Positions 10,428-34,503 of a stretch of DNA of 64,000 nt are shown piece after piece. Source of the DNA: Bacillota bacterium (GTDB lineage Bacteria > Bacillota > Clostridia > Christensenellales > UMGS416). Under the pieces are notes generated by a model that saw only the letters and a program-made list of their open reading frames with translations, searched no databases and was not told where the DNA came from. Every line of letters starts with the position of its first letter. Within the stretch, counting starts at the first letter, position 1. Made by a program: the position numbers and the translations under genes. The DNA is taken from NCBI GenBank assembly GCA_023435705.1, contig JAEYRH010000009.1, positions 264,572 to 328,571 on the forward strand, written 5' to 3'.

Positions 10428-11222
10428 TTGAGCAAAAGGAAGACTGTCTGGCAGATCCACAACGAAGCGATAAAAGCGCTGTTTGCCCATTTCGGCACGA
10501 TGTCACTGGTGTCGCTGGCGCTTTCCGGCGTGGCAGTGGCGCTTGGCCTGGCGGAGTTCATCGTGATGGTTGTGGTCAAGGCCTTCGCGGGAATCAACTT
10601 CCAATCGATTGTGCAGCTAGTGCAAGCCGGATCCTTTCAGGAGTTTTGGGCAATGGCGCAGCCTCTGCTGGAGGCGCTGGGCATCAATCTGTTGATTGGG
10701 GCTGTGCTGGGTGCGTTCACCGGCATCCTCCAGACTGCGTCAACCATCAGCGGCTACGATGCCTCTCTTCGTGTGCTTGCAGGTGAGCGTGCCGCTCTTG
10801 GGCCCATTGCCCGCAATTTCCGGCGGGGCTTCTGGCGCTTTGCCGGTGTGACTGCCTGGGTTGCCCTCTGGCAGTTTCTTTGGTCGTTGTTGTTTCTGGT
10901 GCCCGGCATTGTGAAGTCCTACAGCTACCGGCTGGCCCCTTTCCTGGCCCTGCGGCACCCTGAGCTGACCGTGTGGCAGGCGCTCCGAAAATCCATTGAG
11001 ATCACCGAGGGTCATAAAGCCAGCTTGTTTGCTCTGGACTTGATCCTGATGCTCTACCAGCTGGCGGCGCTGTTGGCCTCCCTGCTCGTGCCTGTGCTGG
11101 GATCGTTGGCGGTGCGGCTGCTGCTGGTCGCACCGATGACGCTGCTGGTGTTTTCTGTGGCATATCGGGATATTGGCCGGGAAGCTGTGGAGAAGGGGCT
11201 GCTGACTGCTGAACGTGGCTGA
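10428..11222 (+). CDS. DUF975 family integral membrane protein (paralog 1 of 3)
   Basis: TTG start after GGATGGAGAAGG. Core FWRFAGVTAWVALWQFLWSLLFLVPGIVKSYSYRLAPFLALRHPELTVWQALRKSIEITEGHKASLF. Confidence 0.8.
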   Translation: MSKRKTVWQIHNEAIKALFAHFGTMSLVSLALSGVAVALGLAEFIVMVVVKAFAGINFQSIVQLVQAGSFQEFWAMAQPLLEALGINLLIGAVLGAFTGILQTASTISGYDASLRVLAGERAALGPIARNFRRGFWRFAGVTAWVALWQFLWSLLFLVPGIVKSYSYRLAPFLALRHPELTVWQALRKSIEITEGHKASLFALDLILMLYQLAALLASLLVPVLGSLAVRLLLVAPMTLLVFSVAYRDIGREAVEKGLLTAERG

Positions 11223-11333
11223 ATTGGCCTTTAGGTGCGTTAAGAGATGAATTCTGTGAGTAATGTCGCTATAAACAATAACGTAACAGGTATATAATAA
11301 CGATACAATATAGTATGAAAGGGAGTGTGTACC

Positions 11334-12311
11334 ATGAAGGGTGGGCAAAAAACAGTCGGCCACATTTATCATGAGGCCGTGCAGCAACTAAAAACCAACT
11401 ACTTCCAGTATGTGGGAGTAGGTGGGGTTTTCACCGCCATGTCAATGGTGTTCTCCTCGATTTTGATGGCGGTTTTCTTTGCATTCTACTTCGTTTTTGC
11501 CATGCTGTTCTCAATGGCGCCGGCGTTGGCAATCCCGCTGTTTATGGATGACTACAGGGGCGAAGCAACCGCTGCGGTTGCGGGGTTCCTTGTTGTGGGA
11601 GCCATCGTGCTTTTCATTTTTCTGGCATTGTTCAGCTTGGCGGCGCTGCTTGTGGGCATTGCAACGGCCACAGTGGGTGTCAGCTCAAACAAGGCTGTGC
11701 TCCTCTTGGTGCGTGGTGACAAACTGACCTGGCAGGCTGTCTGGGGTGATTTCAAGAAAAACTGGAAGCGATACCTGGGCATTTCGGCCTGGTCGACGTT
11801 GTGGACTCTTTTGTGGTCTCTGCTGTTTTATGTGCCCGGCGTGATCAAATCTTTGAGTTACTCCATGGCGCCTTATCTGGTGATTGAGAACCCAGATATG
11901 ACGGTGCGGCAGGCATTGAAGAAATCCATGGAGATCACCGAAGGCCACAAAGGCAAGCTGTTTTTGATTCTGTTGATTCAGATCGGCTTTACTTGGGCGG
12001 CTTCCATCCTGGCGTCGTTTGGGATCATGTATGCCAGCCTGGCCGCGGCGATCCTCTGGATCCTCCCGTTCTATCTGGCGATGATGGCAATTGCCTATCT
12101 GGATCTCAAGCAGGCAGCCATCGAAAAAGGACTGCTGAAGGATTCCTGCCAGCTGGTTGAGCCCACCCCCGTCGTAGATTACCAGGCAGTCGATGGCACG
12201 GTGGATGCAAGCCACAAGGCCGCGCAGCCGGTGCAGGTGGGTGTGCCTGCCAGCCAAGCTGCCGCCGGAAGCGAATTCACCGGCATGGAGGAAGACAGCC
12301 CGCAGTTGTAA
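11334..12311 (+). CDS. DUF975 family integral membrane protein (paralog 2 of 3)
   Basis: ATG 11334 after AAAGGGAG. Core NWKRYLGISAWSTLWTLLWSLLFYVPGVIKSLSYSMAPYLVIENPDMTVRQALKKSMEITEGHKGKLF. Extra ~50-aa hydrophilic tail. Confidence 0.8.
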   Translation: MKGGQKTVGHIYHEAVQQLKTNYFQYVGVGGVFTAMSMVFSSILMAVFFAFYFVFAMLFSMAPALAIPLFMDDYRGEATAAVAGFLVVGAIVLFIFLALFSLAALLVGIATATVGVSSNKAVLLLVRGDKLTWQAVWGDFKKNWKRYLGISAWSTLWTLLWSLLFYVPGVIKSLSYSMAPYLVIENPDMTVRQALKKSMEITEGHKGKLFLILLIQIGFTWAASILASFGIMYASLAAAILWILPFYLAMMAIAYLDLKQAAIEKGLLKDSCQLVEPTPVVDYQAVDGTVDASHKAAQPVQVGVPASQAAAGSEFTGMEEDSPQL

Positions 12312-14359: not shown

Positions 14360-14396
14360 CATACAAAAACAGGGCAAGCTCCTGAGCTTGCCCTGT
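14360..14396 (-). terminator. Intrinsic terminator after the L,D-transpeptidase gene
   Basis: Perfect 12-bp stem ACAGGGCAAGCT/AGCTTGCCCTGT with a 4-nt loop. On the minus strand it is followed by TTTTTGTATGT. Confidence 0.75.
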
Positions 14397-14407
14397 TAAG
14401 GTTTGGT

Positions 14408-15049
14408 TTATCGAAGAATCGTGGGATCGGTGGGGTCGAAGGTGGCTCCCTCCGGCAATGGCGGCAGCGGCTCCAGGCAGACTGGCGTGGGCCCGCCGCT
14501 TAAAACGACTTTGACCACGGTGCCGGCAGGGCAGTTCACATAGATCCACATCGCGTCGCGCACGCTGAGGCGCACACAGCCGGCAGAAACGGGCTGGCCC
14601 AGGTTTAGATAGGAGTCCGGCTCCATCTTGTTGGAGTCCATTTTGGAAAACACCGTGGAGTGAAACCAGATGGGCTTGTTGAAACACACAGCGAACTGCT
14701 CATAGCTTTGAGGCCTGCCGTTTTTCGGCGGTGAATTGAGCCACCGCCGCCTCATGCTGATCTTGAACGTGCCCGGAAAGGTCTTCGGCGGCACACCGGT
14801 GGAGCACAGCATCTGCCGGTCGATGATTGTGTATTGGCCGGCTTCATCGCGGCGGAGCACTGTGGTGACCTGTGTTTCCTTGTCCACGATCAGCTGGTAA
14901 TATTTCGAGTCCACGATCGGGCGGACGTTCATGTTCGGGCTTGGCTTCAGCGGGCTCAGATAGGTGCTTTCCGCAGACACAGCGGGGCTGGGCGCCAACA
15001 GAAAAAGTAGCGCCGCCGCAAGCAGAACGGGAAGGATTTTTCGGTGCAT
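14408..15049 (-). CDS. L,D-transpeptidase (YkuD domain), secreted
   Basis: ATG 15049 gives the signal peptide MHRKILPVLLAAALLFLLAPSPAVSA. Catalytic region WFHSTVF...GQPVSAGCVRLSVRDAMWIY. Confidence 0.85.
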   Translation of the reverse strand: MHRKILPVLLAAALLFLLAPSPAVSAESTYLSPLKPSPNMNVRPIVDSKYYQLIVDKETQVTTVLRRDEAGQYTIIDRQMLCSTGVPPKTFPGTFKISMRRRWLNSPPKNGRPQSYEQFAVCFNKPIWFHSTVFSKMDSNKMEPDSYLNLGQPVSAGCVRLSVRDAMWIYVNCPAGTVVKVVLSGGPTPVCLEPLPPLPEGATFDPTDPTILR

Positions 15050-15149: not shown

Positions 15150-16538
15150 TCACTGCCGCTCCGGCAGCAGGTCCAGCAGCTGCCCGATGGTGAGATCCGG
15201 GTTTTCCACTCCGGTCAGCATTGTGCTGACCAGATCAGTGTGGAAGTCCAGCACGGTCTGCTGTTGCACAACGCTGCGCTGATACTCGTAGTAGCATCGC
15301 AGGCCGCCTGAGCCGTCGTCATCCATCACCGTGAGGTAAAAGGGCTGTGATGATACGCCATTGCAATACCATTTGGTGCGCACTGGCGCGCCGTCCGAAA
15401 GCACGAGCCGCACCGGCTGAAAGGTCAGGCACACCGACTGGTAGGAGCCCACCGGGTCGCCTCCCCGATAAGCGTTGTCACATAGTTTCTTGACCTCCAG
15501 CATGTCAATCCCGGCGTGGCGGTAAACCTCTGTCTGCCGCGCTGCCACCTGCTTTGCAGCAGACAGGAAGCTTTCTGCTGCTGCAATCACGGTGCGGAAG
15601 ATTACCGGGTGCACCCTGGTGCCGCCGGAGCGCTTTTCAGCCAGGGTGCTGCGCCGGGCCACGGTGGAATAAATACTCACATCTTTTTGCCGCCCGTTTC
15701 GTTTGGACAGGCAGGTGCGCACACCCAGCAGAAACAGCACCTGCATCGGCAGGTTGTGTTCCTCGCAAAATGCCGCCAGCTTTGCCACATCCTCCGCCGA
15801 GATTATGAGCACCTCGTGCAGCGCGCGGGTGCGCAGCGTAAAGCCCGATGCTGCCTGCAGGCGGGGGTTTTTTTTCTTTTTCCGGTATGCTTCCAGCACT
15901 GACGGGCCGTTGATGTGGGTGTACCACGGCTCTTCCCTGCGGCACTCGGCGTGCCAGAATTCCAGGTCTTTCTGATACTGCTCGGTGTTTATGTAATCCA
16001 GGTCTTTGATTAGCAGCAGCTCGTGCTGTGCCGGCGGCCTTGGCGGTTCGGCCTCACCGGCTTCGGCGTGATAAAGATCCATCACATGCTTCATCAGCAT
16101 GCAGATGGCCCAGGAATCCATGATCATGTGGCTCACGCCCAGATAGACGCCGCACAGCCCATCCGGCGAGCGCACCACCCACATGCGGCTCAAAGGCCTG
16201 TTGAGCAGGTAGAAGGGTTTGGAAGCCAGGTGATAGAGGTGACGGTCCATCTGCTCTTGAGTCTTTCCTGTGAAATCCAACAAACCGATCGTGGGTTCAG
16301 CAGCAGGAAGAAAGTATTGCACCACTCGTTTGTCAACTTTCTTCAGGCGGATGCGCAGCGCGTCCACCTGCACATATGCTTGACCGATGGCCCGCCGGAG
16401 AATGTTGAAATCCAGCGGCCGCTCCAGCAGCATCAATGTAAAGATGTTGTTCACTTGCTTGTGCAGTGTGAACTTCTGGCTGTAAAACAGGATGTTTTGC
16501 GCGGCGGTCATGCCGTAGAAGGTTGGGGCTTGTTTCAT
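15150..16538 (-). CDS. Stand-alone NRPS-type condensation (C) domain protein
   Basis: ATG 16538 lies 8 nt after AAGGAGG. 462 aa. C1-like MTAAQNILFYSQ, C2-like VDALRIRL, C3 active site SHMIMDSW (HHxxxDG variant that keeps the second His and the Asp). Confidence 0.85.
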   Translation of the reverse strand: MKQAPTFYGMTAAQNILFYSQKFTLHKQVNNIFTLMLLERPLDFNILRRAIGQAYVQVDALRIRLKKVDKRVVQYFLPAAEPTIGLLDFTGKTQEQMDRHLYHLASKPFYLLNRPLSRMWVVRSPDGLCGVYLGVSHMIMDSWAICMLMKHVMDLYHAEAGEAEPPRPPAQHELLLIKDLDYINTEQYQKDLEFWHAECRREEPWYTHINGPSVLEAYRKKKKNPRLQAASGFTLRTRALHEVLIISAEDVAKLAAFCEEHNLPMQVLFLLGVRTCLSKRNGRQKDVSIYSTVARRSTLAEKRSGGTRVHPVIFRTVIAAAESFLSAAKQVAARQTEVYRHAGIDMLEVKKLCDNAYRGGDPVGSYQSVCLTFQPVRLVLSDGAPVRTKWYCNGVSSQPFYLTVMDDDGSGGLRCYYEYQRSVVQQQTVLDFHTDLVSTMLTGVENPDLTIGQLLDLLPERQ

Positions 16539-16562
16539 TTGGAGAACCTCCTTAGTCAAATC

Positions 16563-19500
16563 TCACTCCACAGACTTCAGTGATTCCACCATCGGGATCC
16601 GCTTGAGCCTTGGCACCATCACCAGGATCACAAAGCCGGTGAAGGCCATCGTGAGCAGAAATGACCAGCCAAAGCTGATGGGCTCGATGGCATTGCCAAA
16701 CATGATGCCGGCCTGCTCGATGTTTTCCATGATGTAGCGGTGCAGCAGCACGCCAAGCCCCAGGCCGATGGCCGCGCCCAACAAGGAGAGCAGCACGTTT
16801 TCGCGGAACACATAGCCTGACTGCTCCCGGTCGGTGAATCCCAGCACCTTCACTGTGGCGATCTCGCGGACACGCTCGCCGATGTTGATGTTGGTGAGGT
16901 TATACAGCACCACGAAGGCCAGCAGCCCCGCCGAGAGGATGATCACCAGCACGATGGCGTTGAGGCTCTTCACTGTTTGGGTGAAAGAATCGGCCAATGC
17001 AGAGTAAAATGTGACTGACGCCACGCCGCCGCCCCCGATCAGCTTCTGGGCCAGGGTCTCCTCGGCCTTGGCTGAGCTGTCAGCCAGCCGGATCATCAGG
17101 CTGTTCATCCTGGCCTCCAGTCGGAAAACCTGCCTGTAGAGAGAGGGTGAAATATAGATATAGTGAAACACATATTGCTCGGTGATCGCCGCCACGGTCA
17201 CCTTTTTCCGCCCGCCCAGGCCGTTGTCCAGCTCGATTGTGCCGCCTCGGCTCACGCCCAACTCCTTGGCAAGCTTTTCGGTGAGGACCACGCCGCTGTC
17301 ATCCAGTGAAATTGGCTGACGGCCCTCGCGGCTGCGCAGTGTTACATATTGTGCAAACGCTGCCGGGTCTTGCGGCACTACCAGGGTTGCGGCGATGTCC
17401 TCACCGCTGCCGCGGGCCTTGGCGTTCAGCTCCGCCGACTCCAGCCAAGACTGGGTGTTTGCATCCTGCCCCAGCGACTGTGCGGCGGCTGCCCTTTGGC
17501 CATCAGTGACGTCGGCTGAGAATCGAAGATTTAAGTCATAGGTGAAGATCTGGCTGAACTGCCGGTCCACCACCTGGCTGATGGAGTCGTTCAGGCCGAA
17601 ACCAGCCACCAGAAGCGCCGTGCAGCCGGCGATGCCGGCTACGGTCATCCAGAAACGCTTCTTATAGCGGAAGAGGTTGCGCATCGTGACTTTCTGGGAA
17701 AAGCTCAGCCGCCGCCAAAAAGAGCCCAGCCGCTCCAATAAAATTCGCTTGCCTGGTTTCGGGGCTTTTGGGCGCATGAGTGTGGCAGGGGCATCGGCCA
17801 GCTCCTTGCGACAGGCTGCCCAGGCGGTAAGTGTGGTCACCAGCACGCCCATCAGCAGGCTGACTGCCATCAGCAACGGCTGGGCAACAGTCTGAAGGGG
17901 AGGCATTTCATACTTCATGAGCCATGAACGGTAGATCACTTCGGGGAATACACTCATCCCAACTGCCAGGCCCGCAGCGCCGCCCAGCGTGCTGGCCACC
18001 GCAGCATAGCAGATATACTTGGCCGCGATGGCACCGTCGGAATAACCCAGCGCCTTATAGATGCCGATGGCGCCGCGCTGCTCATCCACCATGCGGGTCA
18101 TTGTGGTCAGGCAGACCAGCGCCGCCACCAGGAAGAAGAACACCGGGAACACCGTGGCGATGGCGTCCACCCGCCCGGCTGTCATGCCAAAGTCCTCGTA
18201 GCTCAGGTTGCCGTGGCGATCCAGCACAATCCACTGGGGCTTGCTGATGCGCTCAATCTCGTCCTCGGCTTTGATGATTTTCTCCTGCCCGGCGGCCAGT
18301 TCCGCCTCGCCTTTGGCGGTGGACTCGGCATATTCCTGTTTGCCGTGCTCATATTCGGCCCACCCGGAGGCAATGTCGGCCTCAGCTTGCGTAAACTTAG
18401 CAGCCGCTTCTTCCTCTTGCCTTTGAAGCTCAGCCTCTGATGCAGCAATCTTCTTGTAGCCATCGTCCAGCTGCTTGCGTGCTGCACGAAGTTTTTTTTC
18501 GGCACTGGATAACTGGCCCTGGGTGAAGCCATTGAGCTCGTTTGCTGAGTTGATGCCTTCTTCTGTGGCGGCAAGAAATTGTCGGTACATCGCGATCATC
18601 TGTGTGAGGCGCTGCTTCTCCTCCGGGGATAAATCCGGGTTCTGCAAATCACTTTCCATGTCGGCGATTTCCTGCTTGGCTTGTTTGCGCAGGGAGTTGA
18701 TGTCTTGCACTGCGCCATCCATCTGCGCCAGCTCGTCGCTGTATTGTGCCTTGGCCTTGTTGTAATCAACCAGACCTTGTCTGTATTCCTTTTCTCCTTG
18801 TGCCAGGTCCTTTTTTCCTTGCTCGATCTGGTCGCGGGCCATTCTTGTTGTAATTTCGAAATTCGCCTTTTCGCTGGCCAGCGTGGACTCGGCCTTTTCC
18901 AGATCCACCCGGGCTTGCTCCAGCTTTTCCCTGGCTGCTGCTGTTTGCTGCTCAAACTCCTGCCTTTTTGCCTCATATTCTCTCTTCGCGTCATCCAGCT
19001 GGGCGGTCGCCTGGCCTTTGATCTCCGCAAGCCTCAGGCCGCTGCGGTCCAGCCCCATGTTTTCCAGGTCTGTAAGTGTTTTTTCCACCAGGCGGCCATA
19101 CGTTTCGCTGTAGCAGTTGAGCTCTTCGGCGCCCTTCACGGTCACTTGCACTTCGGTGTATACCGGGTATGCGAAATCTTCCTCCGGCACCATCAAAAAG
19201 AAACTCACCTTGCCGTTGCCGATGTCGGAGGAACCCTTGTCAAAGCACAGGTAAAGCGGGCTGACAGCCTTCCCTACAATGGTGAATGTGTCTGTTTTCA
19301 GCGTGCCGTCGGTGATGGCGGTTTCTTTTCCGGAGGATACCTGCAGTGTGTCTCCCACCTTAAGGCCTGAGTCCAGATACTTGGATTGCTCCAGCAGGCA
19401 TTCGCCGGATTTCTCCGGCAGGCGGCCCTCAGTCAGCACCACGCGGTTGACCGGCGCCTGCCCTCCCACGGGCATGCTGTGCAGCCGGAACACATACTCC

Positions 19501-19799
19501 ATGGAGCCCACAGTGCTTACGGCATCGGAAAAATAGGCGGGCTGCACCCGCTCCACTGTGCCCAGCGCAGCGATGGCTTCCACGTCGCCTTTGGTCAATC
19601 CCAGTGTGGAGAGCACGCGGATATCCATCATACCGTTGTCATCTAAGTAGCGGTCGGCGGTGTGCTCCATGTCTGGCGCGGTGGCCTTGATGCCGGCAAA
19701 AAATCCCACGCCAATGAGCACGATCAGAAAGATCGAGAGGAAGCGTGCCCAGGATTTGCGGACTTCCCGCACCAGATCCAATGAAATGGCGCTCTTCAT
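16563..19799 (-). CDS. ABC transporter permease with duplicated FtsX domains and a long coiled-coil ectodomain
   Basis: 1078 aa from ATG 19799 (alternative ATG at 19823). N-terminus MKSAISLDLVREVRKSWARFLSIFLIVLIGVGFF. Two FtsX 3-helix bundles (~res 550-670 and the C-terminal ~120 aa). ~260-aa heptad-rich insert. Confidence 0.85.
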   Translation of the reverse strand: MKSAISLDLVREVRKSWARFLSIFLIVLIGVGFFAGIKATAPDMEHTADRYLDDNGMMDIRVLSTLGLTKGDVEAIAALGTVERVQPAYFSDAVSTVGSMEYVFRLHSMPVGGQAPVNRVVLTEGRLPEKSGECLLEQSKYLDSGLKVGDTLQVSSGKETAITDGTLKTDTFTIVGKAVSPLYLCFDKGSSDIGNGKVSFFLMVPEEDFAYPVYTEVQVTVKGAEELNCYSETYGRLVEKTLTDLENMGLDRSGLRLAEIKGQATAQLDDAKREYEAKRQEFEQQTAAAREKLEQARVDLEKAESTLASEKANFEITTRMARDQIEQGKKDLAQGEKEYRQGLVDYNKAKAQYSDELAQMDGAVQDINSLRKQAKQEIADMESDLQNPDLSPEEKQRLTQMIAMYRQFLAATEEGINSANELNGFTQGQLSSAEKKLRAARKQLDDGYKKIAASEAELQRQEEEAAAKFTQAEADIASGWAEYEHGKQEYAESTAKGEAELAAGQEKIIKAEDEIERISKPQWIVLDRHGNLSYEDFGMTAGRVDAIATVFPVFFFLVAALVCLTTMTRMVDEQRGAIGIYKALGYSDGAIAAKYICYAAVASTLGGAAGLAVGMSVFPEVIYRSWLMKYEMPPLQTVAQPLLMAVSLLMGVLVTTLTAWAACRKELADAPATLMRPKAPKPGKRILLERLGSFWRRLSFSQKVTMRNLFRYKKRFWMTVAGIAGCTALLVAGFGLNDSISQVVDRQFSQIFTYDLNLRFSADVTDGQRAAAAQSLGQDANTQSWLESAELNAKARGSGEDIAATLVVPQDPAAFAQYVTLRSREGRQPISLDDSGVVLTEKLAKELGVSRGGTIELDNGLGGRKKVTVAAITEQYVFHYIYISPSLYRQVFRLEARMNSLMIRLADSSAKAEETLAQKLIGGGGVASVTFYSALADSFTQTVKSLNAIVLVIILSAGLLAFVVLYNLTNINIGERVREIATVKVLGFTDREQSGYVFRENVLLSLLGAAIGLGLGVLLHRYIMENIEQAGIMFGNAIEPISFGWSFLLTMAFTGFVILVMVPRLKRIPMVESLKSVE

Positions 19800-19800
19800 G

Positions 19801-20505
19801 CTACCACTCGATTCTCTCGGCATCCATCGGCCGGGGGTTGGTCTCGATGGCGTCCACCCGGCCGCTTTTGACGCGGATCACCCGGTCGCCGAGGGCAGTG
19901 AAGGCCAGGTTGTGTGAAATCACGATCACCGTGGTGTGGGTTTTGCGGCAGGTGTCTTGCAGCAGCTTCAGGATCGACTTGCCTGTGGTGTAATCCAGCG
20001 CACCGGTGGGTTCGTCACAAAGCAGCAGCTTGGGGTTTTTGGCCAGGGCCCGGGCAATGGCCACCCGCTGCTGCTCGCCGCCGGAGAGCTGCGAGGGGAA
20101 GTTGCCCATGCGGTCTTTCAGGCCCACGTCTTCCATCACCTGGCGGATATCCAGCGGGTCGCGGCTCACCTGCGCTGCCAGCTCCACGTTTTCCAGAGCG
20201 GTCAGGTTGGGCACCAGGTTGTAGAACTGAAACACAAACCCGACGTCGTAGCGCCGGTAGCCCACCAGCTGGCGGGCATTGTAGCGGCTGATCATCGCCC
20301 CGTCCACCGAAATGGTGCCGGAGGTGAGGCTGTCCATGCCGCCCAGGATGTTGAGGATTGTGCTCTTGCCCGCGCCGCTGGCCCCGCAGATGATTACAAA
20401 CTCGCCCCGGCCTATTGTGAAATCCACGCCGGCCAGCGCCTCGATCTCCACCTCGCCCATACGGTAGAGCTTGCGCACGCTGCCAAACTCAATAAAGTCG
20501 CTCAT
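19801..20505 (-). CDS. ABC transporter ATP-binding protein (MacB/LolD/FtsE type)
   Basis: 234 aa. Walker [10 protein letters not shown], signature [15 protein letters not shown], Walker [13 protein letters not shown]. Confidence 0.92.
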
Positions 20506-20521
20506 ATGCAGCGCCCTCTGT

Positions 20522-20749
20522 TCATTGCAGTTTTTCCCTCAGGTATTCCGACAGGTCGCCCACGGTCACCAGGTTCCGGATGTCGCCATCGGGGATTTCC
20601 ACCCCCAGATCCTGCTCCGTTTTGCCGACCAGGCTGATAATGTCATAGGAATTGAGGTTCAGGTCTGCCACGAAGCGTGTGGCTTCTGTGATGGACTCTT
20701 CCTCCACATCCACATACTCCAACAGGCTCTTGCGGATATAGCTAAGCAA
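20522..20749 (-). CDS. Free-standing acyl/peptidyl carrier protein (PP-binding)
   Basis: 75 aa from TTG 20749, 7 nt after GGAAGGAAGG. MLSYIRKSLLEYVDVEEESITEATRFVADLNLNSYDIISLVGKTEQDLGVEIPDGD... with Ser in LNSYD at the expected 4'-phosphopantetheine site. The first 111 aa of the 186-aa ORF overlap the ligase gene out of frame and are rejected. Confidence 0.7.
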   Translation of the reverse strand: MLSYIRKSLLEYVDVEEESITEATRFVADLNLNSYDIISLVGKTEQDLGVEIPDGDIRNLVTVGDLSEYLREKLQ

Positions 20750-22448
20750 TGCTTGCCCTTCCTTCCAGCACCACCTGGCGCTTAATTTTGCGGGTTGTTG
20801 TCTTTTCAAACTCGGTCTGGCTGATGCGTACCTCCTGCACGCGCTTATAGGCTGGCAGCCTGTTGTTGAGCCGCCGGATATCCTGCTCAAGCCGCTCCCG
20901 GAGCTCAGCCAGAGAAGCGTTGCCGGTGTGCTCCGGGTCCAGATAGACGTCGGCCACGATGGTCTCCTGACTGCCGGCGATTGATCGGGAATAAACCACG
21001 ACCTCGCGTACATAGCCGATCTGGCCGAGGATCGCCTCTTCCACCTCTTCGGGGCACACATTTTTGCCGTTTGATAGCACAATCAGGTTTTTCTTCCTGC
21101 CGGTCAGATACAAGAAGCCCCGCCGGTCCAGCCGCCCCAGATCGCCGGTCTTGAAATAGCCATCTTCTGAAAAGGATGCCTGGGTGGCTGCCTCATCCCT
21201 GTAATATCCCAGCATCACCGTGTCGCCCCTCACCAGCACCTCACCGTTGCCCTTCTCATCGGGCATGTCGATGCGCACGTCACACACCGGCAGCACAAGA
21301 CCCACCGAGCCGGCTCGCCGCCAGGCAGAACTGTTCGTGGAGATCACCGGTGCGCACTCGGTGATGCCATAGCCGTTCACCACATCGATGCCCAGGTCTC
21401 CAAAGCCTTTGATCAGTTCTTCACGCAGCGGCGCGCCGCCGCACACGATCTGGGCAAGGTTGCCGCCGAATTTCTCCAGGATGGGCTTGAAATAGAGCCG
21501 CCTCATGTCGATGCCGATTGCCCGCAACAGGTTACTAAACGCAATGCCATATCGGAGGTGGCCGGCCAGGTTTGCTTTTTCTGCCTCTTTCCAGATCTGC
21601 CGGTGCATTGTTTCCAGAAACAGCGGCACCATCAGGCTCATACCGGGCTTGAAGAGCCTGAGGTTGTCCTTCAGGTGCTTCAGGCTGTCGTTGAAGCACA
21701 CGGTGATGCCCGAATAAATGCCGCCCAGCACATGGCAGGTGCATTCATAGGAATGGCTGATGGGAAGCACCGAGATGGAGACCGGCTCTGCCTTGATCAT
21801 GTGCATAATGCCATGGAGCACCGCCATCACATTGCGTTGGCAAAGCATCACGCCCTTGTTTGCGCCGGTGGTGCCTGAGGTGAAGATGATCTCACACAGT
21901 GCGTCCGGGTCGATTGGCAGGGTGGGGTAGGGGCTGCCGGGCCCGTCCAGGATAGCGCGGCCTTCCTCGAGCAGCCGGTCAAAGGCCAGAAATCCCGGTT
22001 CTTTATGGCTTGTGCCGCCCATGACAAAGCAACATGTCACTGCGGGGCACTCGGGCAGAACCGACTGTATCATCGGAGCATACGCGGCTGTGCAGATCAC
22101 CGCGTCCGAATCGCTTTTCCGCAGCAGCTTTGCAATGTCGCCCGCCGGCAATTCCTTATCCAACGGCACAACAACGCCAAGGCCTCCCGCAATTGCCAGA
22201 TAGCTCACCACCCAGCGGTAGCAGTTTTCGCCCAGCAGAGCGATGTGCTTTGCCAGCAAGCCATGATGGAGAAGCGCCGCACCAAGGCTTTCCACATCAC
22301 GGGCCAACTGGCGGTAGGTGTATTCCTGAATTTGCCGCTCTCTGTCCAACTCCCGGAATGCGATCCGGTCTCCAAACAACACTTCCGATCGGTGGATCAG
22401 CTCGCGTGTGTTTTCCAGTCTTTGGCTGTGGTAGAGCTTCGGTTTCAT
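20742..22448 (-). CDS. AMP-dependent acyl ligase (long-chain fatty acyl-CoA/ACP synthetase type)
   Basis: 568 aa from ATG 22448. AMP-binding motifs IFTSGTTGANKGVML, GYGITECAP, FKTGDLGRLDRRGFLYLTGRKKNLIVLSNGKNV, C-terminal TTTRKIKR. Confidence 0.9.
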   Translation of the reverse strand: MKPKLYHSQRLENTRELIHRSEVLFGDRIAFRELDRERQIQEYTYRQLARDVESLGAALLHHGLLAKHIALLGENCYRWVVSYLAIAGGLGVVVPLDKELPAGDIAKLLRKSDSDAVICTAAYAPMIQSVLPECPAVTCCFVMGGTSHKEPGFLAFDRLLEEGRAILDGPGSPYPTLPIDPDALCEIIFTSGTTGANKGVMLCQRNVMAVLHGIMHMIKAEPVSISVLPISHSYECTCHVLGGIYSGITVCFNDSLKHLKDNLRLFKPGMSLMVPLFLETMHRQIWKEAEKANLAGHLRYGIAFSNLLRAIGIDMRRLYFKPILEKFGGNLAQIVCGGAPLREELIKGFGDLGIDVVNGYGITECAPVISTNSSAWRRAGSVGLVLPVCDVRIDMPDEKGNGEVLVRGDTVMLGYYRDEAATQASFSEDGYFKTGDLGRLDRRGFLYLTGRKKNLIVLSNGKNVCPEEVEEAILGQIGYVREVVVYSRSIAGSQETIVADVYLDPEHTGNASLAELRERLEQDIRRLNNRLPAYKRVQEVRISQTEFEKTTTRKIKRQVVLEGRASIA

Positions 22449-22628
22449 GAAACCCCACGGCCCCTTTGCAGGCATGCTACCTATACATATGAAGTGAGTA
22501 TGACTGCATTCCATGAGCGCAGCGTAAGTGGCATTGCTTGATTTCTTGATAAATTGGAATACGATATTACTTATATTATAAGAAGTAGTGGTATCAAAAT
22601 GGCGAAGTAAAGCGAGAAGGGCCCCATT

Positions 22629-22835
22629 GTGTCGCTGGTGTCCATCTGCTCGGTTGTGGTATTTTTGAGCCTCGGGTTTGTGTATGGTCTGTGGCATTCG
22701 GGCTGGATTGTGTTCTTCGCGGCACCGGTGACTGCCGCGATTCTCAAAGTGGTACGAACCCCTCCCGGAGGGGTAGGGGAGAGGGTTCTTTACCGCGTAA
22801 ACGCCTGCAGCTTGTCAATCAGCCCCAGCTCATAA
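22629..22835 (+). CDS. Possible small two-helix membrane protein or gene remnant
   Basis: GTG start. VSICSVVVFLSLGFVYGLWHSGWIVFFAAPVTAAIL forms two hydrophobic helices. The 3' tail overlaps a convergent gene. An in-frame ATG-GCG-AAG-TAA sits just upstream at 22599-22610. Confidence 0.25.
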   Translation: MSLVSICSVVVFLSLGFVYGLWHSGWIVFFAAPVTAAILKVVRTPPGGVGERVLYRVNACSLSISPSS

Positions 22836-23095
22836 GCCTTCCTCACCAACGGAAATTCTTCACGGCGGATGAAATAGAGCGTGGCGTAATTCCGTTGGAT
22901 CTGCGTGCCGTGAAACAGGTAATGCTCCACGGCCTGAAACCCCTCCTCGGTGCTCACGACACTCAGCGCATAATCCAGGATTTTGGATTCTGCAATTGTC
23001 ATCTCCATTGTCAGGCGCTCCATCAAGGCGTCCACGGCCGCTCTTGTGCCTGTTTCTGCCAGCCGAACGCATTGCTCCAGCATGGACTGGCCCAT
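22790..23095 (-). CDS. Hypothetical small helical protein
   Basis: 101 aa. ATG 23095 lies 24 nt after the hydrolase stop and is preceded by AAAGGA. All-helical composition. No family recognised. Confidence 0.5.
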   Translation of the reverse strand: MGQSMLEQCVRLAETGTRAAVDALMERLTMEMTIAESKILDYALSVVSTEEGFQAVEHYLFHGTQIQRNYATLYFIRREEFPLVRKAYELGLIDKLQAFTR

Positions 23096-23119: not shown

Positions 23120-23971
23120 TTAGCCACCTTCGTTTAGGAACCGGCTGATTTCTTCTGCCATCCCGATCAGCACATGGCCGGCTTCCGGCAGCACGCGGAG
23201 ATCAGCATGCGGCATAAACTTGGCCACACGCTTGGCAGTGTGGCCGGTGTGAAACATCGCGTCTCTGCCGCCAGCCACTGCCAGCACCGGCATCGCGAGC
23301 CGCTTGAGCTCGCTGTTTTGAAACAGCGGGATCAACTCCTTGCGGTAGTTGAAGTGCTCATCAATGAGCCGCTGATATTGCAGCACCACCTCCGGCAGCT
23401 CTTGCGCGCCGTTCACCTTGGGTATTAATCTGCGTTTCATCCCTTCCCCCAGCAGGTTGTACAGTGCGCTGGTGATCGGGAATGATATCTTCTGCGCCCC
23501 AATGCCTGCCGGGGAGAGCAGCACCAGTTTCTCCACCTTTTCAGGATATTGTGTGGCAAACTTCGCCGCTACATATGAGCCGAGAGAAATACCCACAAGG
23601 CATGCCCTCTTCAAATTCAGCGTTGCAAACACATCGTTTAGCCACAAAGCATGGTCTGTGCCGGCGAGGGGCAACTGCCGATCGTCGCTCATGCCCGGCT
23701 CGCCCGGCAGGTCCACGGCATACACACGATGCGTCCGGGCAAGCACCGGCGCATCAGCCATCCACATCACCGAGCTCATGGCGCTGCCGTGCAATAGCAC
23801 GACTGCTGGGCCATCTGTGGGGCCGCAGGCGATCACATGAGCCTGGCCGAAACGCGTATCGATAAGGGTCATCGAATTGGGCGCCATCCAGTGCGCCAGC
23901 AAGCCGCCGGTGAACCGATGGAGCACCTCTTTGCCCTCCGGTGACTTGAAAGCAGTTGTTTGGTTTTTCAT
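23120..23971 (-). CDS. Alpha/beta-fold hydrolase
   Basis: ATG 23971 after GAAGGGAG. HGSAMSS oxyanion region, nucleophile elbow GISLGS, C-terminal GHVLIGM (His). Confidence 0.85.
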   Translation of the reverse strand: MKNQTTAFKSPEGKEVLHRFTGGLLAHWMAPNSMTLIDTRFGQAHVIACGPTDGPAVVLLHGSAMSSVMWMADAPVLARTHRVYAVDLPGEPGMSDDRQLPLAGTDHALWLNDVFATLNLKRACLVGISLGSYVAAKFATQYPEKVEKLVLLSPAGIGAQKISFPITSALYNLLGEGMKRRLIPKVNGAQELPEVVLQYQRLIDEHFNYRKELIPLFQNSELKRLAMPVLAVAGGRDAMFHTGHTAKRVAKFMPHADLRVLPEAGHVLIGMAEEISRFLNEGG

Positions 23972-24100
23972 AAGGGTCACTCCCTTCAATCCATTAGAAA
24001 TTCCTCACAGTGACTAGGTTAAAGATAACATAAGTTAAATAGTTCGTCAATACTTCTTTTCTTTGATTGTTAAGAAAACATGAATGTCGTGCCAAAGATA

Positions 24101-25246: not shown

Positions 25247-25809
25247 ACCGAAAAAGAACTGCCCCGGAAGAGGAAATGTTGAAAGCCAACGAAGCAGCGC
25301 AGGATGCTGCCAACGAGTGCGCGGCCTGCGCAGAGGAAGACCAGATCGCCCAGGAAATGAAGCGCCTGACCGAGGAGAGCGAAAAGGCTGCAAAGGAACG
25401 GGATGAATTTCTGAACCTGGCCCAGCGCGTGCAGGCGGATTTTGACAACTACCGCCGCCGCAACCAAAATGCCCGTGAGGATGCCTTCAACGACGGCGTT
25501 CGCGACACGCTGCTGAAGTTCCTGCCGGTGCTCGATAACCTGGAGCGGGCCACCGCAGCCCAGGGAGAGGAAGGCGCTCTGAAGGAGGGCGTGCTGCTTG
25601 TCGTCAAGCAGCTAATCGGCATCCTCACCGCCGCCGGCGTGGAGGAGATCCCGGCGCAGGATTGCGCTTTCGATCCCAACGTGCACAACGCCGTGATGCA
25701 GGAGGCCGTGGATGGCTGCGCAAGCGGCCAGGTGGTGGGCGTGCTGCTAAAGGGTTATACGCACAAGGGACGCGTGCTGCGCCACTGCATGGTAAAGGTT
25801 TCCGAATAG
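25243..25809 (+). CDS. grpE: Nucleotide exchange factor GrpE
   Basis: ATG 25243 in ATGA overlap with the hrcA stop. [34 protein letters not shown]. Confidence 0.95.
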
Positions 25810-25888
25810 GAAACAAACTCCAACCCAAACGGGCTGGATTTTGAATAGAAATAGAAAGAACAGGCATCAAGCCAGGAGGTACATAGAA

Positions 25889-27733
<1,845 letters not shown>

Positions 27734-34429: not shown

Positions 34430-34503
34430 GCGGGTGTAACTCAATGGTAGAGTTCTAGCTTCCCAAGCTAGCTACGTGGGTTCGATTCCCATCACCCGCT
34501 CCA
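34430..34503 (+). tRNA. tRNA-Gly (anticodon CCC)
   Basis: Hand-folded cloverleaf. Acceptor GCGGGTG/CACCCGC, D arm ACTC-AATGGTA-GAGT, anticodon arm CTAGC-TTCCCAA-GCTAG, T arm GTGGG-TTCGATT-CCCAT, encoded CCA. Confidence 0.9.

Follow-up and report, generated by a model that had tools for sequence, protein, structure and literature searches.

A probable fatty acid amide-type synthase operon with its own Type VII ABC extractor or exporter in a Bacillota bacterium

In a 64-kb stretch of DNA from a Bacillota bacterium (contig JAEYRH010000009.1, positions 264,572 to 328,571; the whole stretch is called the window and its own numbering is used throughout), genes for acyl activation and acyl transfer are interleaved with genes for a membrane machine: five minus-strand genes at 15150-22448 encode an acyl-activating ligase, a free acyl carrier protein (ACP), an ATP-binding cassette (ABC) ATPase, a very large double-FtsX permease and a stand-alone condensation (C) protein. 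What does this group of genes make, and what would the ABC machine do with the product? The answer that we favour, with a probability of roughly 0.6, is an acyl-amide synthase operon of the fatty acid amide (FAA) type, a chemistry also described as nonribosomal peptide synthetase (NRPS)-like, which has its own Type VII ABC extractor or exporter. The five genes are listed in the direction of transcription:

20742..22448, minus strand: acyl-activating ligase, 568 amino acids (aa); PF00501 (2.1e-63) plus C-terminal domains
20522..20749, minus strand: ACP, 75 aa, TTG start; PF00550 (1.5e-08)
19801..20505, minus strand: ABC ATPase, 234 aa; PF00005 (3.6e-34)
16563..19799, minus strand: double-FtsX permease, 1078 aa; two PF02687 and two PF12704 (MacB_PCD) domains
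15150..16538, minus strand: stand-alone C protein, 462 aa; PF00668 (1.8e-34)

The Pfam matches confirmed all five domains named in a preliminary description of the locus, and the coordinates, junctions and motifs given there were all recovered from the window sequence and its translations. The five genes are intact: the ligase and ACP genes overlap by 8 nucleotides (nt) and the following genes are separated by gaps of 16, 1 and 24 nt. The motifs TSGTTGANKG, GYGITE and TTRKIKR were present in the ligase, LNLNSYD in the ACP and SHMIMDSW in the C protein; the Walker A motif, the signature LSGGEQQR and the Walker B motif of the ATPase were all intact. The longest open reading frames (ORFs) taken mechanically (651, 186, 1086 and 469 aa) begin too early, and the gene calls of public assemblies gave 1078 aa for the permease and 462 aa for the C protein. 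The unusual TTG start of the ACP gene is supported by its exact alignment with the start codon in 29 homologues.

A Shine-Dalgarno sequence of its own had been assigned to each gene. Clear ones were found 5' of the ACP gene (GGAAGGAAGGG) and of the C gene (TAAGGAGG), those of the ATPase and ligase genes were acceptable, and that of the FtsX gene was weak; the latter gene is probably translationally coupled to the ATPase gene, from which it is separated by 1 nt only. The reading of the five genes as one operon holds. Comparison with the two closest relatives (loci L001 and L002) gave ratios of nonsynonymous to synonymous substitution rates (dN/dS) of 0.04-0.23 for all five genes, which indicates purifying selection, and the genes are functional.

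The distribution of this gene group was analyzed with an alignment of C homologues, which was run against GTDB genomes, one for each species; 44 loci were obtained and the window proteins were mapped onto them. The usual order is ligase, ACP, phosphopantetheinyl transferase (PPTase), ATPase, FtsX (1078-1083 aa) and C, sometimes with two C genes. The FtsX gene was located directly upstream from the C gene in 28 of the 35 loci having at least 3.4 kb of upstream sequence, with a decayed copy in one more, and the full cassette was found in 21 of the 27 loci having at least 8.7 kb. Hosts among the Bacillota were Clostridium folliculivorans, C. polynesiense, Proteiniclasticum, Alkalibaculum, Mageeibacillus, a record titled Alloiococcus sp. 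CFN-8 and metagenome-assembled genomes (MAGs) of Oscillospiraceae; hosts among the Actinomycetota were Brooklawnia, Propionicimonas, Propioniciclava, other Propionibacteriaceae and one Dermatophilaceae MAG. Two further metagenome loci share the same FtsX-C arrangement. Because the order recurs in related genomes of two phyla and the genes are under purifying selection, the five-gene arrangement is not due to chance, and the co-conservation on which the preliminary description had made its proposal depend is strong.

The ATPase was the most conserved of the proteins (mean pairwise identity 74%), followed by the ligase and the FtsX permease (53% each), and the C protein was the fastest-evolving (43%). 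The distance matrices of ligase, ATPase, FtsX and C correlated at r 0.91-0.96, which fits inheritance of the cassette as a unit.

The gene of about 185 aa that lies between the ACP and ATPase genes in most relatives encodes an Sfp-type PPTase (PF01648; motifs GIDVE and WTLKES). Of the 21 complete cassettes scored, 19 contained it; in Brooklawnia it is located downstream from the C gene, and the window, L001 and L002 lack it. The earlier remark that no PPTase is encoded was thus correct for the window and did not apply to the usual cassette of the family. Since the window lineage lacks this gene and its five genes are under purifying selection, the PPTase producing holo-ACP is presumably encoded elsewhere in the genome. 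The five operon proteins and the flanking genes scanned with Pfam contained no amino-acid adenylation (A) domain, thioesterase or PPTase; in the rest of the window the search covered the PPTase, of which there was none.

The best PDB sequence match of the C protein was chain 12kh_A, entitled 'Condensation Domain Protein' (E 2.6e-57; the structure ranked second gave 2.8e-08), and the alignment was colinear, with residues 6-456 of the query facing residues 6-463 of the chain. The 12kh sequence is 465 aa long, carries the motif DHRLMDS and is 99% identical to a metagenome-abundant cluster of 1464 members. Judging from this motif, the name, the length, the account in PMC13310621 and the abundant cluster, 12kh appears to be OaaC of Coprococcus eutactus, an enzyme reported to join acyl groups from acyl-ACP to free amines in vitro, with fatty acid amides as products (PMC13310621).

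The C domains of FAA pathways were described as carrying (D/H)HxxxDS in place of HHxxxDG and as sister to the starter C domains (PMC13310621). The window motif, SHxxxDS, agrees with the FAA type at the conserved His, Asp and Ser. Across 40 relatives, H137, D141 and W143 of SHMIMDSW were invariant, and S136 and S142 were conserved in at least 90%. Residues 213-235 of OaaC, which include the reported extra helix Gln214-His224, aligned without gaps to the window C protein, and the latter was 29-32% identical to its counterparts in OaaC-type clusters.

The AlphaFold model of the C protein (predicted local distance difference test, pLDDT, 91.8) showed the canonical C fold, with template modelling scores of 0.80-0.86 to the LgrA C domain and the RzmA starter C domain (0.81-0.86 for RzmA). 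No hydrophobic segment was detected in a hydrophobicity scan and the protein is therefore considered soluble and cytoplasmic; lipoprotein N-acylation by the C protein was dropped as a candidate activity on these grounds.

C homologues were gathered from 1.84 billion representative proteins and a neighbour-joining tree of 112 sequences was built. In this tree, which carries no support values and does not include the published set of 127 FAA C sequences, the window clade grouped with stand-alone C proteins, apart from the NRPS-embedded C domains, and the window and OaaC clades were separate stand-alone subclades. The window C protein is predicted to be an FAA-type acyl-ACP:amine N-acyltransferase.

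The best NCBIfam and PDB relatives of the ligase were long-chain fatty-acid ligases, such as FadD13 and ttLC-FACS, at scores below the family cut-offs. With the ligases of OaaC-type clusters it shared 35-37% identity over nearly its entire length (E 1e-104). In fatty acyl-AMP ligases (FAALs), the N-terminal domain has an insertion between GYGxTE and TGD that blocks ligation to coenzyme A (CoA). Such an insertion, proposed earlier as a check on this ligase, was absent: the segment from GYGITE to TGDLG spans about 65 residues and has no extra length when compared with OaaA-type ligases. Elsewhere, at residues ~290-316, the window ligase carries an insertion of ~25 aa that is specific to the clade and has no counterpart in these ligases. 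The enzyme is probably an OaaA-type ligase that loads a fatty acid onto the ACP.

The ACP matched the NCBIfam acyl carrier protein models, below their cut-offs, and was 33% identical to the carrier proteins of OaaC-type clusters. The Ser in DL(N/H)(L/M)(N/T)SYD was invariant in the 29 cassette homologues and aligned with the Ser of the FSSLD motif of OaaACP-like proteins.

In the pathway that we propose, the ligase would adenylate a carboxylic acid, which is most likely a fatty acid of medium or long chain length, and transfer it as a thioester to holo-ACP, which the Sfp-type PPTase of the cassette would provide in most relatives and a PPTase from another part of the genome would provide here. 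The soluble C enzyme would then pass the acyl group from acyl-ACP to a free small nucleophile, most likely an amine, and the N-acyl amide would be released without a thioesterase. These two steps rest on homology to characterised enzymes; we infer that the donor is a fatty acid and the acceptor an amine. The central idea of the preliminary description, that a stand-alone C protein hands the acid, activated and bound to a free carrier, to a free nucleophile and not to an aminoacyl carrier, holds.

Chemistry of this kind has been described in gut Clostridia for OaaA/OaaACP/OaaC of C. eutactus and for the ebf/ecf clusters of Enterocloster (Chang et al. 2021, as presented in PMC13310621 and PMC10871352). 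According to these accounts, a free ligase attaches the fatty acid to a free ACP, a free C protein condenses it with a free amine, and the fatty acid amide is released with no thioesterase involved (PMC13310621, PMC10871352). The six proteins that they list for the ebf/ecf clusters are a PPTase, an SCP2-like lipid-transfer protein, a predicted hydrolase and the C, thiolation (T) and A proteins, with no transporter among them (PMC10871352, PMC13310621). The OaaC-type loci that were recovered from metagenomes were plain C-T-A.

The window operon resembles this pathway in that its ligase, ACP and C protein are free-standing and are all full-length homologues of the FAA proteins; neither system has a thioesterase or an amino-acid A domain, and a PPTase and a hydrolase are common accessories. 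It differs from it in several respects. The gene order is A-T-ATPase-FtsX-C in the window and A-T-PPTase-ATPase-FtsX-C in most relatives, in contrast with C-T-A; a Type VII ABC pair is embedded in the cassette, where an SCP2-like lipid-transfer protein was not observed. The C motif begins with Ser, the ligase has the additional ~25 aa, the identities are 29-37% and the C protein falls in a separate subclade. The hosts are other Bacillota and Actinomycetota, whereas the FAA clusters are found mainly in Clostridium cluster XIVa. The chemistry core is of a known kind, that of the FAA NRPS-like pathway, in what appears to be a distinct subclade.

The gene combination had at first not been recognised as any characterised pathway. 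This has to be revised for the triad of ligase, ACP and C protein, and still applies to the embedded Type VII module: no description of the cassette or of coiled-coil double-FtsX permeases was found in the searchable literature, outside of which lie the figures and supplements of Chang et al. 2021.

At one metagenome locus (L050, 2598-5670, minus strand), an unrelated pair of an 806-aa FtsX-type permease and an ATPase was observed on the opposite strand, 2.3 kb upstream from an OaaC-like C-T-A cluster and separated from it by amidase and acetyltransferase genes. This proximity is probably coincidental.

Three other systems combine acid activation, a carrier and an acyltransferase. Lipopeptide lipoinitiation (FAAL, free ACP and starter C domain, as in daptomycin-type systems and the rhizomide synthetase RzmA) shares the stand-alone ligase, the carriage on ACP or CoA and a C domain with an acyl donor tunnel; its acceptor, however, is an aminoacyl peptidyl carrier protein (PCP) in a multimodular NRPS, and the operon has no PCP, A domain or NRPS and its C protein is free-standing. 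The mycobacterial FadD-PapA-MmpL/Drr systems and the Dlt system share with the window operon the overall logic only, namely activation of an acid, a carrier, an acyltransferase and a membrane machine. Membership in the former was rejected since there is no homology link, the proteins scanned include no polyketide synthase or MmpL, and the C protein is most closely related to FAA enzymes and not to PapA. No homology was found either behind the Dlt-like analogy put forward earlier: the eight proteins scanned contained no MBOAT (DltB) or DltD domain and the transferase is a soluble PF00668 protein, which excludes membership in that system.

Copies of the C gene were frequent. The remaining loci of the survey contained orphan C paralogues, and the C gene was often duplicated in tandem. 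In one Eubacteriales MAG (L014, L022), an orphan C gene occurred alongside a full cassette with two C genes, and one uncultured Oscillospiraceae MAG contained several orphan C paralogues (L016, L018, L026, L042) in unrelated neighbourhoods. The occurrence of such paralogues within single genomes suggests that several C enzymes are served by one acyl-ACP supply. The tandem and orphan copies, together with the fastest evolution of the C protein, fit a diversification of acceptor specificity.

Variant and broken cassettes were also observed. In L053 (GCA_974486835.1, 990-12117), the C gene is divergent and paired with a gene for an ATP-grasp protein (PF14397), and the permease, longer at 1242 aa, is followed by another AMP-binding gene and by genes for EamA transporters. 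Among the Actinomycetota, some MAGs had fragmented FtsX and ATPase genes (L032, 6105-9896) or a split C gene (L039, 10001-11358); these may be pseudogenes or assembly errors.

Type VII ABC systems act by mechanotransmission on substrates at the outer face of the membrane. The best NCBIfam matches of the window ATPase were LolD, FtsE, DevA, MacB and YbbA (E 1e-52 to 1e-59, with 1e-55 to 1e-59 for the first four, all far below the equivalog cut-offs), and by sequence the protein is assigned to the MacB/LolD/FtsE (Type VII) kind.

The permease is arranged as a first transmembrane helix (TM1), an extracytoplasmic domain 1 that contains a coiled-coil hairpin, TM2-4, a linker, TM5, a second extracytoplasmic domain and TM6-8. 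Its AlphaFold model (pLDDT 80.7) showed eight long transmembrane helices (4+4) and two beta-rich extracytoplasmic domains. In domain 1 of the model, helices 232-385 and 392-517 form a single antiparallel hairpin with about 150 residues per arm, which at ~1.5 Å per residue would be about 22 nm long. When the coiled-coil regions of the permease homologues P0169, P0128 and P0235 were searched against Pfam, only generic coiled-coil noise resulted, and for this reason no homology to the hairpins of membrane-fusion proteins is claimed.

The best solved fold match of the permease was Escherichia coli YbbAP (9ge6; E 1.2e-19, template modelling score 0.63 on the target); BceAB, LolCDE, MacB and HrtBA were further matches (E 1e-12 to 1e-19 for the set from YbbAP to HrtBA), and FtsEX was also matched. 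For YbbAP, a role in drawing hydrophobic molecules out of the inner membrane at its outer face has been proposed, and many Type VII systems are described as acting on lipid-like or hydrophobic substrates, which they extract from the outer side of the membrane (PMC12646458). Like the window permease, the YbbP protein of the YbbAP-TesA system is a single chain with two FtsX modules and two extracytoplasmic domains, served by a separate MacB-type ATPase. YbbP has 10 transmembrane helices and ~800 aa, however, whereas the window model has 8 and a coiled-coil insertion of ~285 residues (232-517) in domain 1; the structure-based sequence identity was 11-12%, and the window has the biosynthetic triad, and no TesA, as genomic partner. 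The difference in helix number, the low identity, the added hairpin and the absence of TesA ruled out the window permease as an orthologue of YbbP.

MacAB-TolC, LolCDE, HrtBA, BceAB, DevBCA and FtsEX have in common with the window module the FtsX unit of four transmembrane helices, the MacB-type core domain between TM1 and TM2 and the LolD/MacB-like ATPase. In the window, by contrast, the two halves are fused in a single chain and the coiled coil is built into the permease. No gene for a separate adaptor of the MacA/DevB type was present in the window operon or conserved in the 44 related loci, and the operon encodes no other partner protein of the pump. The transporter belongs to the Type VII ABC superfamily, in an uncharacterised coiled-coil double-FtsX family.

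Among the sampled homologues, those at least 46% identical to the window permease were part of an acyl cassette, and those at 36-42% were plain ATPase and FtsX pairs in unrelated neighbourhoods. The cassette-linked subclade was therefore apparently recruited from a large orphan family. Outside the acyl cassette this family of giant FtsX proteins is widespread and orphan. A very abundant gut form, a coiled-coil double-FtsX permease of 1198 aa (L047/L048, 8001-11597; 36% identical, on more than 100 contigs), has an ATPase as its only partner and is flanked by genes for a Zn-dependent phospholipase C and a UDP-galactopyranose mutase.

In the third step of the proposed pathway, the amphiphilic amide would partition into the membrane, and a complex of two ATPases and one permease, resembling a fused MacB-like pseudo-dimer, would pull it from the outer leaflet by ATP-driven mechanotransmission and release it outward. 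The ~22-nm hairpin of domain 1 may reach into or through the wall. The conserved gene architecture and the likeness to Type VII systems are the basis of this step; from these we infer the substrate and direction of the ABC complex and the role of the hairpin. A more daring version, which we regard as tentative and rather unlikely, is that the cassette-linked giant FtsX proteins constitute a new Type VII class, a fused MacB-like pseudo-dimer whose ~22-nm arm would deliver a self-made acyl conjugate across or into the thick wall of bacteria generally regarded as monoderm. If this were true, it would mean a dedicated secretion of lipid-amide signals or antimicrobials, or the lipidation of an envelope target, and it would give the first functional handle on the orphan coiled-coil double-FtsX family across the Bacillota, including abundant gut species.

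Several points weigh against the favoured reading. The identities to characterised enzymes are only ~30-37%, and the clade is apart from that of OaaC in a tree lacking support values; ester-forming or other acceptor chemistry is possible for these two reasons. The first residue of the C motif is Ser and not the D/H of the published FAA logo, a small departure. No PPTase was found in the 64-kb window when three cassette PPTases were used as queries. Characterised FAA clusters lack a dedicated ABC system, so that export need not require one, and the coiled coil could have a pure mechanotransmitter role, as in FtsEX, and not a role in transport. The correlation of the distance matrices is partly explained by shared phylogeny.

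Bacterial fatty acid amides have been reported as ligands of host G-protein-coupled receptors and linked to inflammatory bowel disease, and have so far come from simple C-T-A clusters, mainly of Lachnospiraceae. The cassette carries related chemistry to other Bacillota and to Actinomycetota and links it, in what seems to be the first such case, with a machine dedicated to secretion or extraction. It also offers a testable substrate hypothesis for the widespread and uncharacterised giant coiled-coil FtsX permeases. As a compact unit of five or six genes it could be expressed heterologously, in search of new lipid amides and of Type VII lipid handling in the absence of an outer membrane.

The features that adjoin the operon in the window bear on the extent of the transcription unit and on the alternatives:

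14408..15049, minus strand: YkuD L,D-transpeptidase with signal peptide, 213 aa from the ATG at 15049; PF03734 (7.1e-13), 213 aa also in the gene call of a public assembly
14368..14397, minus strand: terminator-like hairpin with 13 pairs, 7 of them G-C, and a T-rich tail (consensus scan only)
22449..22789, minus strand: leader and promoter region, with an A+T-rich stretch at ~22541-22600 and a candidate TTGATA-16-TATAAG (read from the sequence)
22790..23095, minus strand: 101-aa protein of unknown family, no Pfam hit
23120..23989, minus strand: alpha/beta hydrolase; Abhydrolase_1/6 (2.5e-20)

The hairpin at 14397-14368 was the only strong terminator-like site on the minus strand; it is located 3' of the YkuD gene and likely marks the end of the transcription unit, and the transcript may therefore hold six genes in this lineage. 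A YkuD gene directly after the C gene was found only in the window, L001 and L002; it is possibly co-transcribed with the operon, though outside the conserved cassette. On the other side, the motif pair TTGATA-16-TATAAG is a candidate operon promoter; the promoter scan called no site upstream from the ligase gene. No Rfam family was detected in the leader, and the only hit in the 64-kb window was one tRNA (34430-34500, plus strand). The leader was poorly conserved even with L001 and L002, with which only its last ~70 nt are shared. A regulatory RNA was not proposed, given the lack of an Rfam match and this poor conservation.

The genes for the 101-aa protein and the hydrolase adjoin the cassette elsewhere only in L002 and are at most lineage-specific accessories. 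Hydrolases that are not orthologous were observed beside the cassette in different lineages: an Abhydrolase_1 protein occurs in the window (23120-23989, minus strand) and in L002, an Abhydrolase_3 protein downstream from the C gene in the group of L004-L009 and L022 (L004, 11445-12452, plus strand), and an Esterase_PHB-like protein beside actinobacterial cassettes (L025, 11361-12260, minus strand).

The YkuD gene is one of the observations that could point to an envelope lipidation or glycolipid system, the likeliest of the alternatives and in our view an unlikely one. Here the C enzyme would act in a PapA-like manner on the cytoplasmic side of the membrane, with O- or N-acylation of a sugar, of the head-group of a lipid or of a lipid-linked precursor, and the ABC complex would move the lipid to the wall or surface, as in glycolipid export by DevBCA or in LolCDE. 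The good scores of the ATPase on the DevA and LolD models are consistent with this, as are the common action of Type VII systems on membrane-anchored lipids and the existence of ester-forming members among the condensation-fold enzymes. The near-constant hairpin, in permeases of 1078-1083 aa from two phyla generally regarded as monoderm, suggests a structural span, and an L,D-transpeptidase gene comes next, perhaps co-transcribed, in the window lineage. However, the nearest characterised relatives of all three biosynthetic proteins yield free fatty acid amides, conserved neighbours of the cassette do not include glycosyltransferase, polyprenyl-linked or sugar-activating genes, and YkuD is confined to the three closest loci. 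Moreover, the frequent tandem and orphan C paralogues better fit a diversity of small-molecule acceptors than a single envelope target.

The operon could also serve detoxification, in which case the ligase and ACP would capture exogenous membrane-toxic free fatty acids, which would be rendered harmless as amides and expelled by the ABC machine, the product being waste. This proposal, which we judge distinctly unlikely, differs from the FAA synthase and exporter reading in purpose, the mechanism being the same. A dedicated ACP and PPTase would be costly for such a purpose, and the diversifying C paralogues suggest selection on product identity. It is nevertheless in line with the title of Chang et al. 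2021 (cited in PMC13310621), by which FAA pathways draw on exogenous fatty acids derived from diet or host, and with an exporter hard-wired in the operon, with the recurrence of hydrolases from three unrelated families beside the cassette and with a cassette in which no regulator or amine-supplying enzyme is conserved.

Could the ABC pair be an independent module, for peptide or drug resistance (BceAB, YknYZ) or a wall-remodelling mechanotransmitter (FtsEX), that merely travels with the acyl genes? Giant FtsX and ATPase pairs related at 36-42% are widespread without acyl genes, characterised FAA clusters do without such a module, and the fold matches include BceAB and FtsEX. The pair is not at the edge of the cassette, though: it sits between the ACP or PPTase gene and the C gene, with gaps of 1-24 nt here, and this position is kept in 28 of the 35 loci, in two phyla. 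The sampled cassette-linked permeases were all more than 45% identical to that of the window, as compared with 36-42% for the sampled unlinked ones, and the permease distances track those of the C protein and the ligase. An independent module is accordingly considered quite improbable.

Highly improbable is a supply-side role, in which the ABC complex would extract lipids, either of the membrane or of the surroundings, for an associated hydrolase in the manner of YbbAP-TesA and the freed fatty acid would feed the ligase: YbbAP is the best structural match, alpha/beta hydrolases recur beside the cassette and the ebf/ecf clusters also encode a hydrolase, yet these hydrolases are non-orthologous and absent from many loci, no N-terminal signal peptide was seen in the hydrolase of the window (where the hydrophobicity scan also showed none) or of L004, and no TesA-like SGNH partner is encoded or conserved beside the cassette.

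The wider flanks of the operon are of a housekeeping character (hrcA-dnaK, a GH3 glycosidase, DUF975 and YetF genes), and the base composition gave no sign of a genomic island. Two DUF975 paralogues lie in tandem downstream from the operon region (10428-11222 and 11325-12311, both plus strand). The dnaK gene is at 25841-27733 on the plus strand (HSP70 match 1.5e-249). An ORF of 318 aa at 25625-26581 on the minus strand matched the Pfam family PF10712, 'NAD-specific glutamate dehydrogenase' (4.7e-60); it lies antisense in dnaK and looks like a member of a well-known family of spurious ORFs and not a gene.

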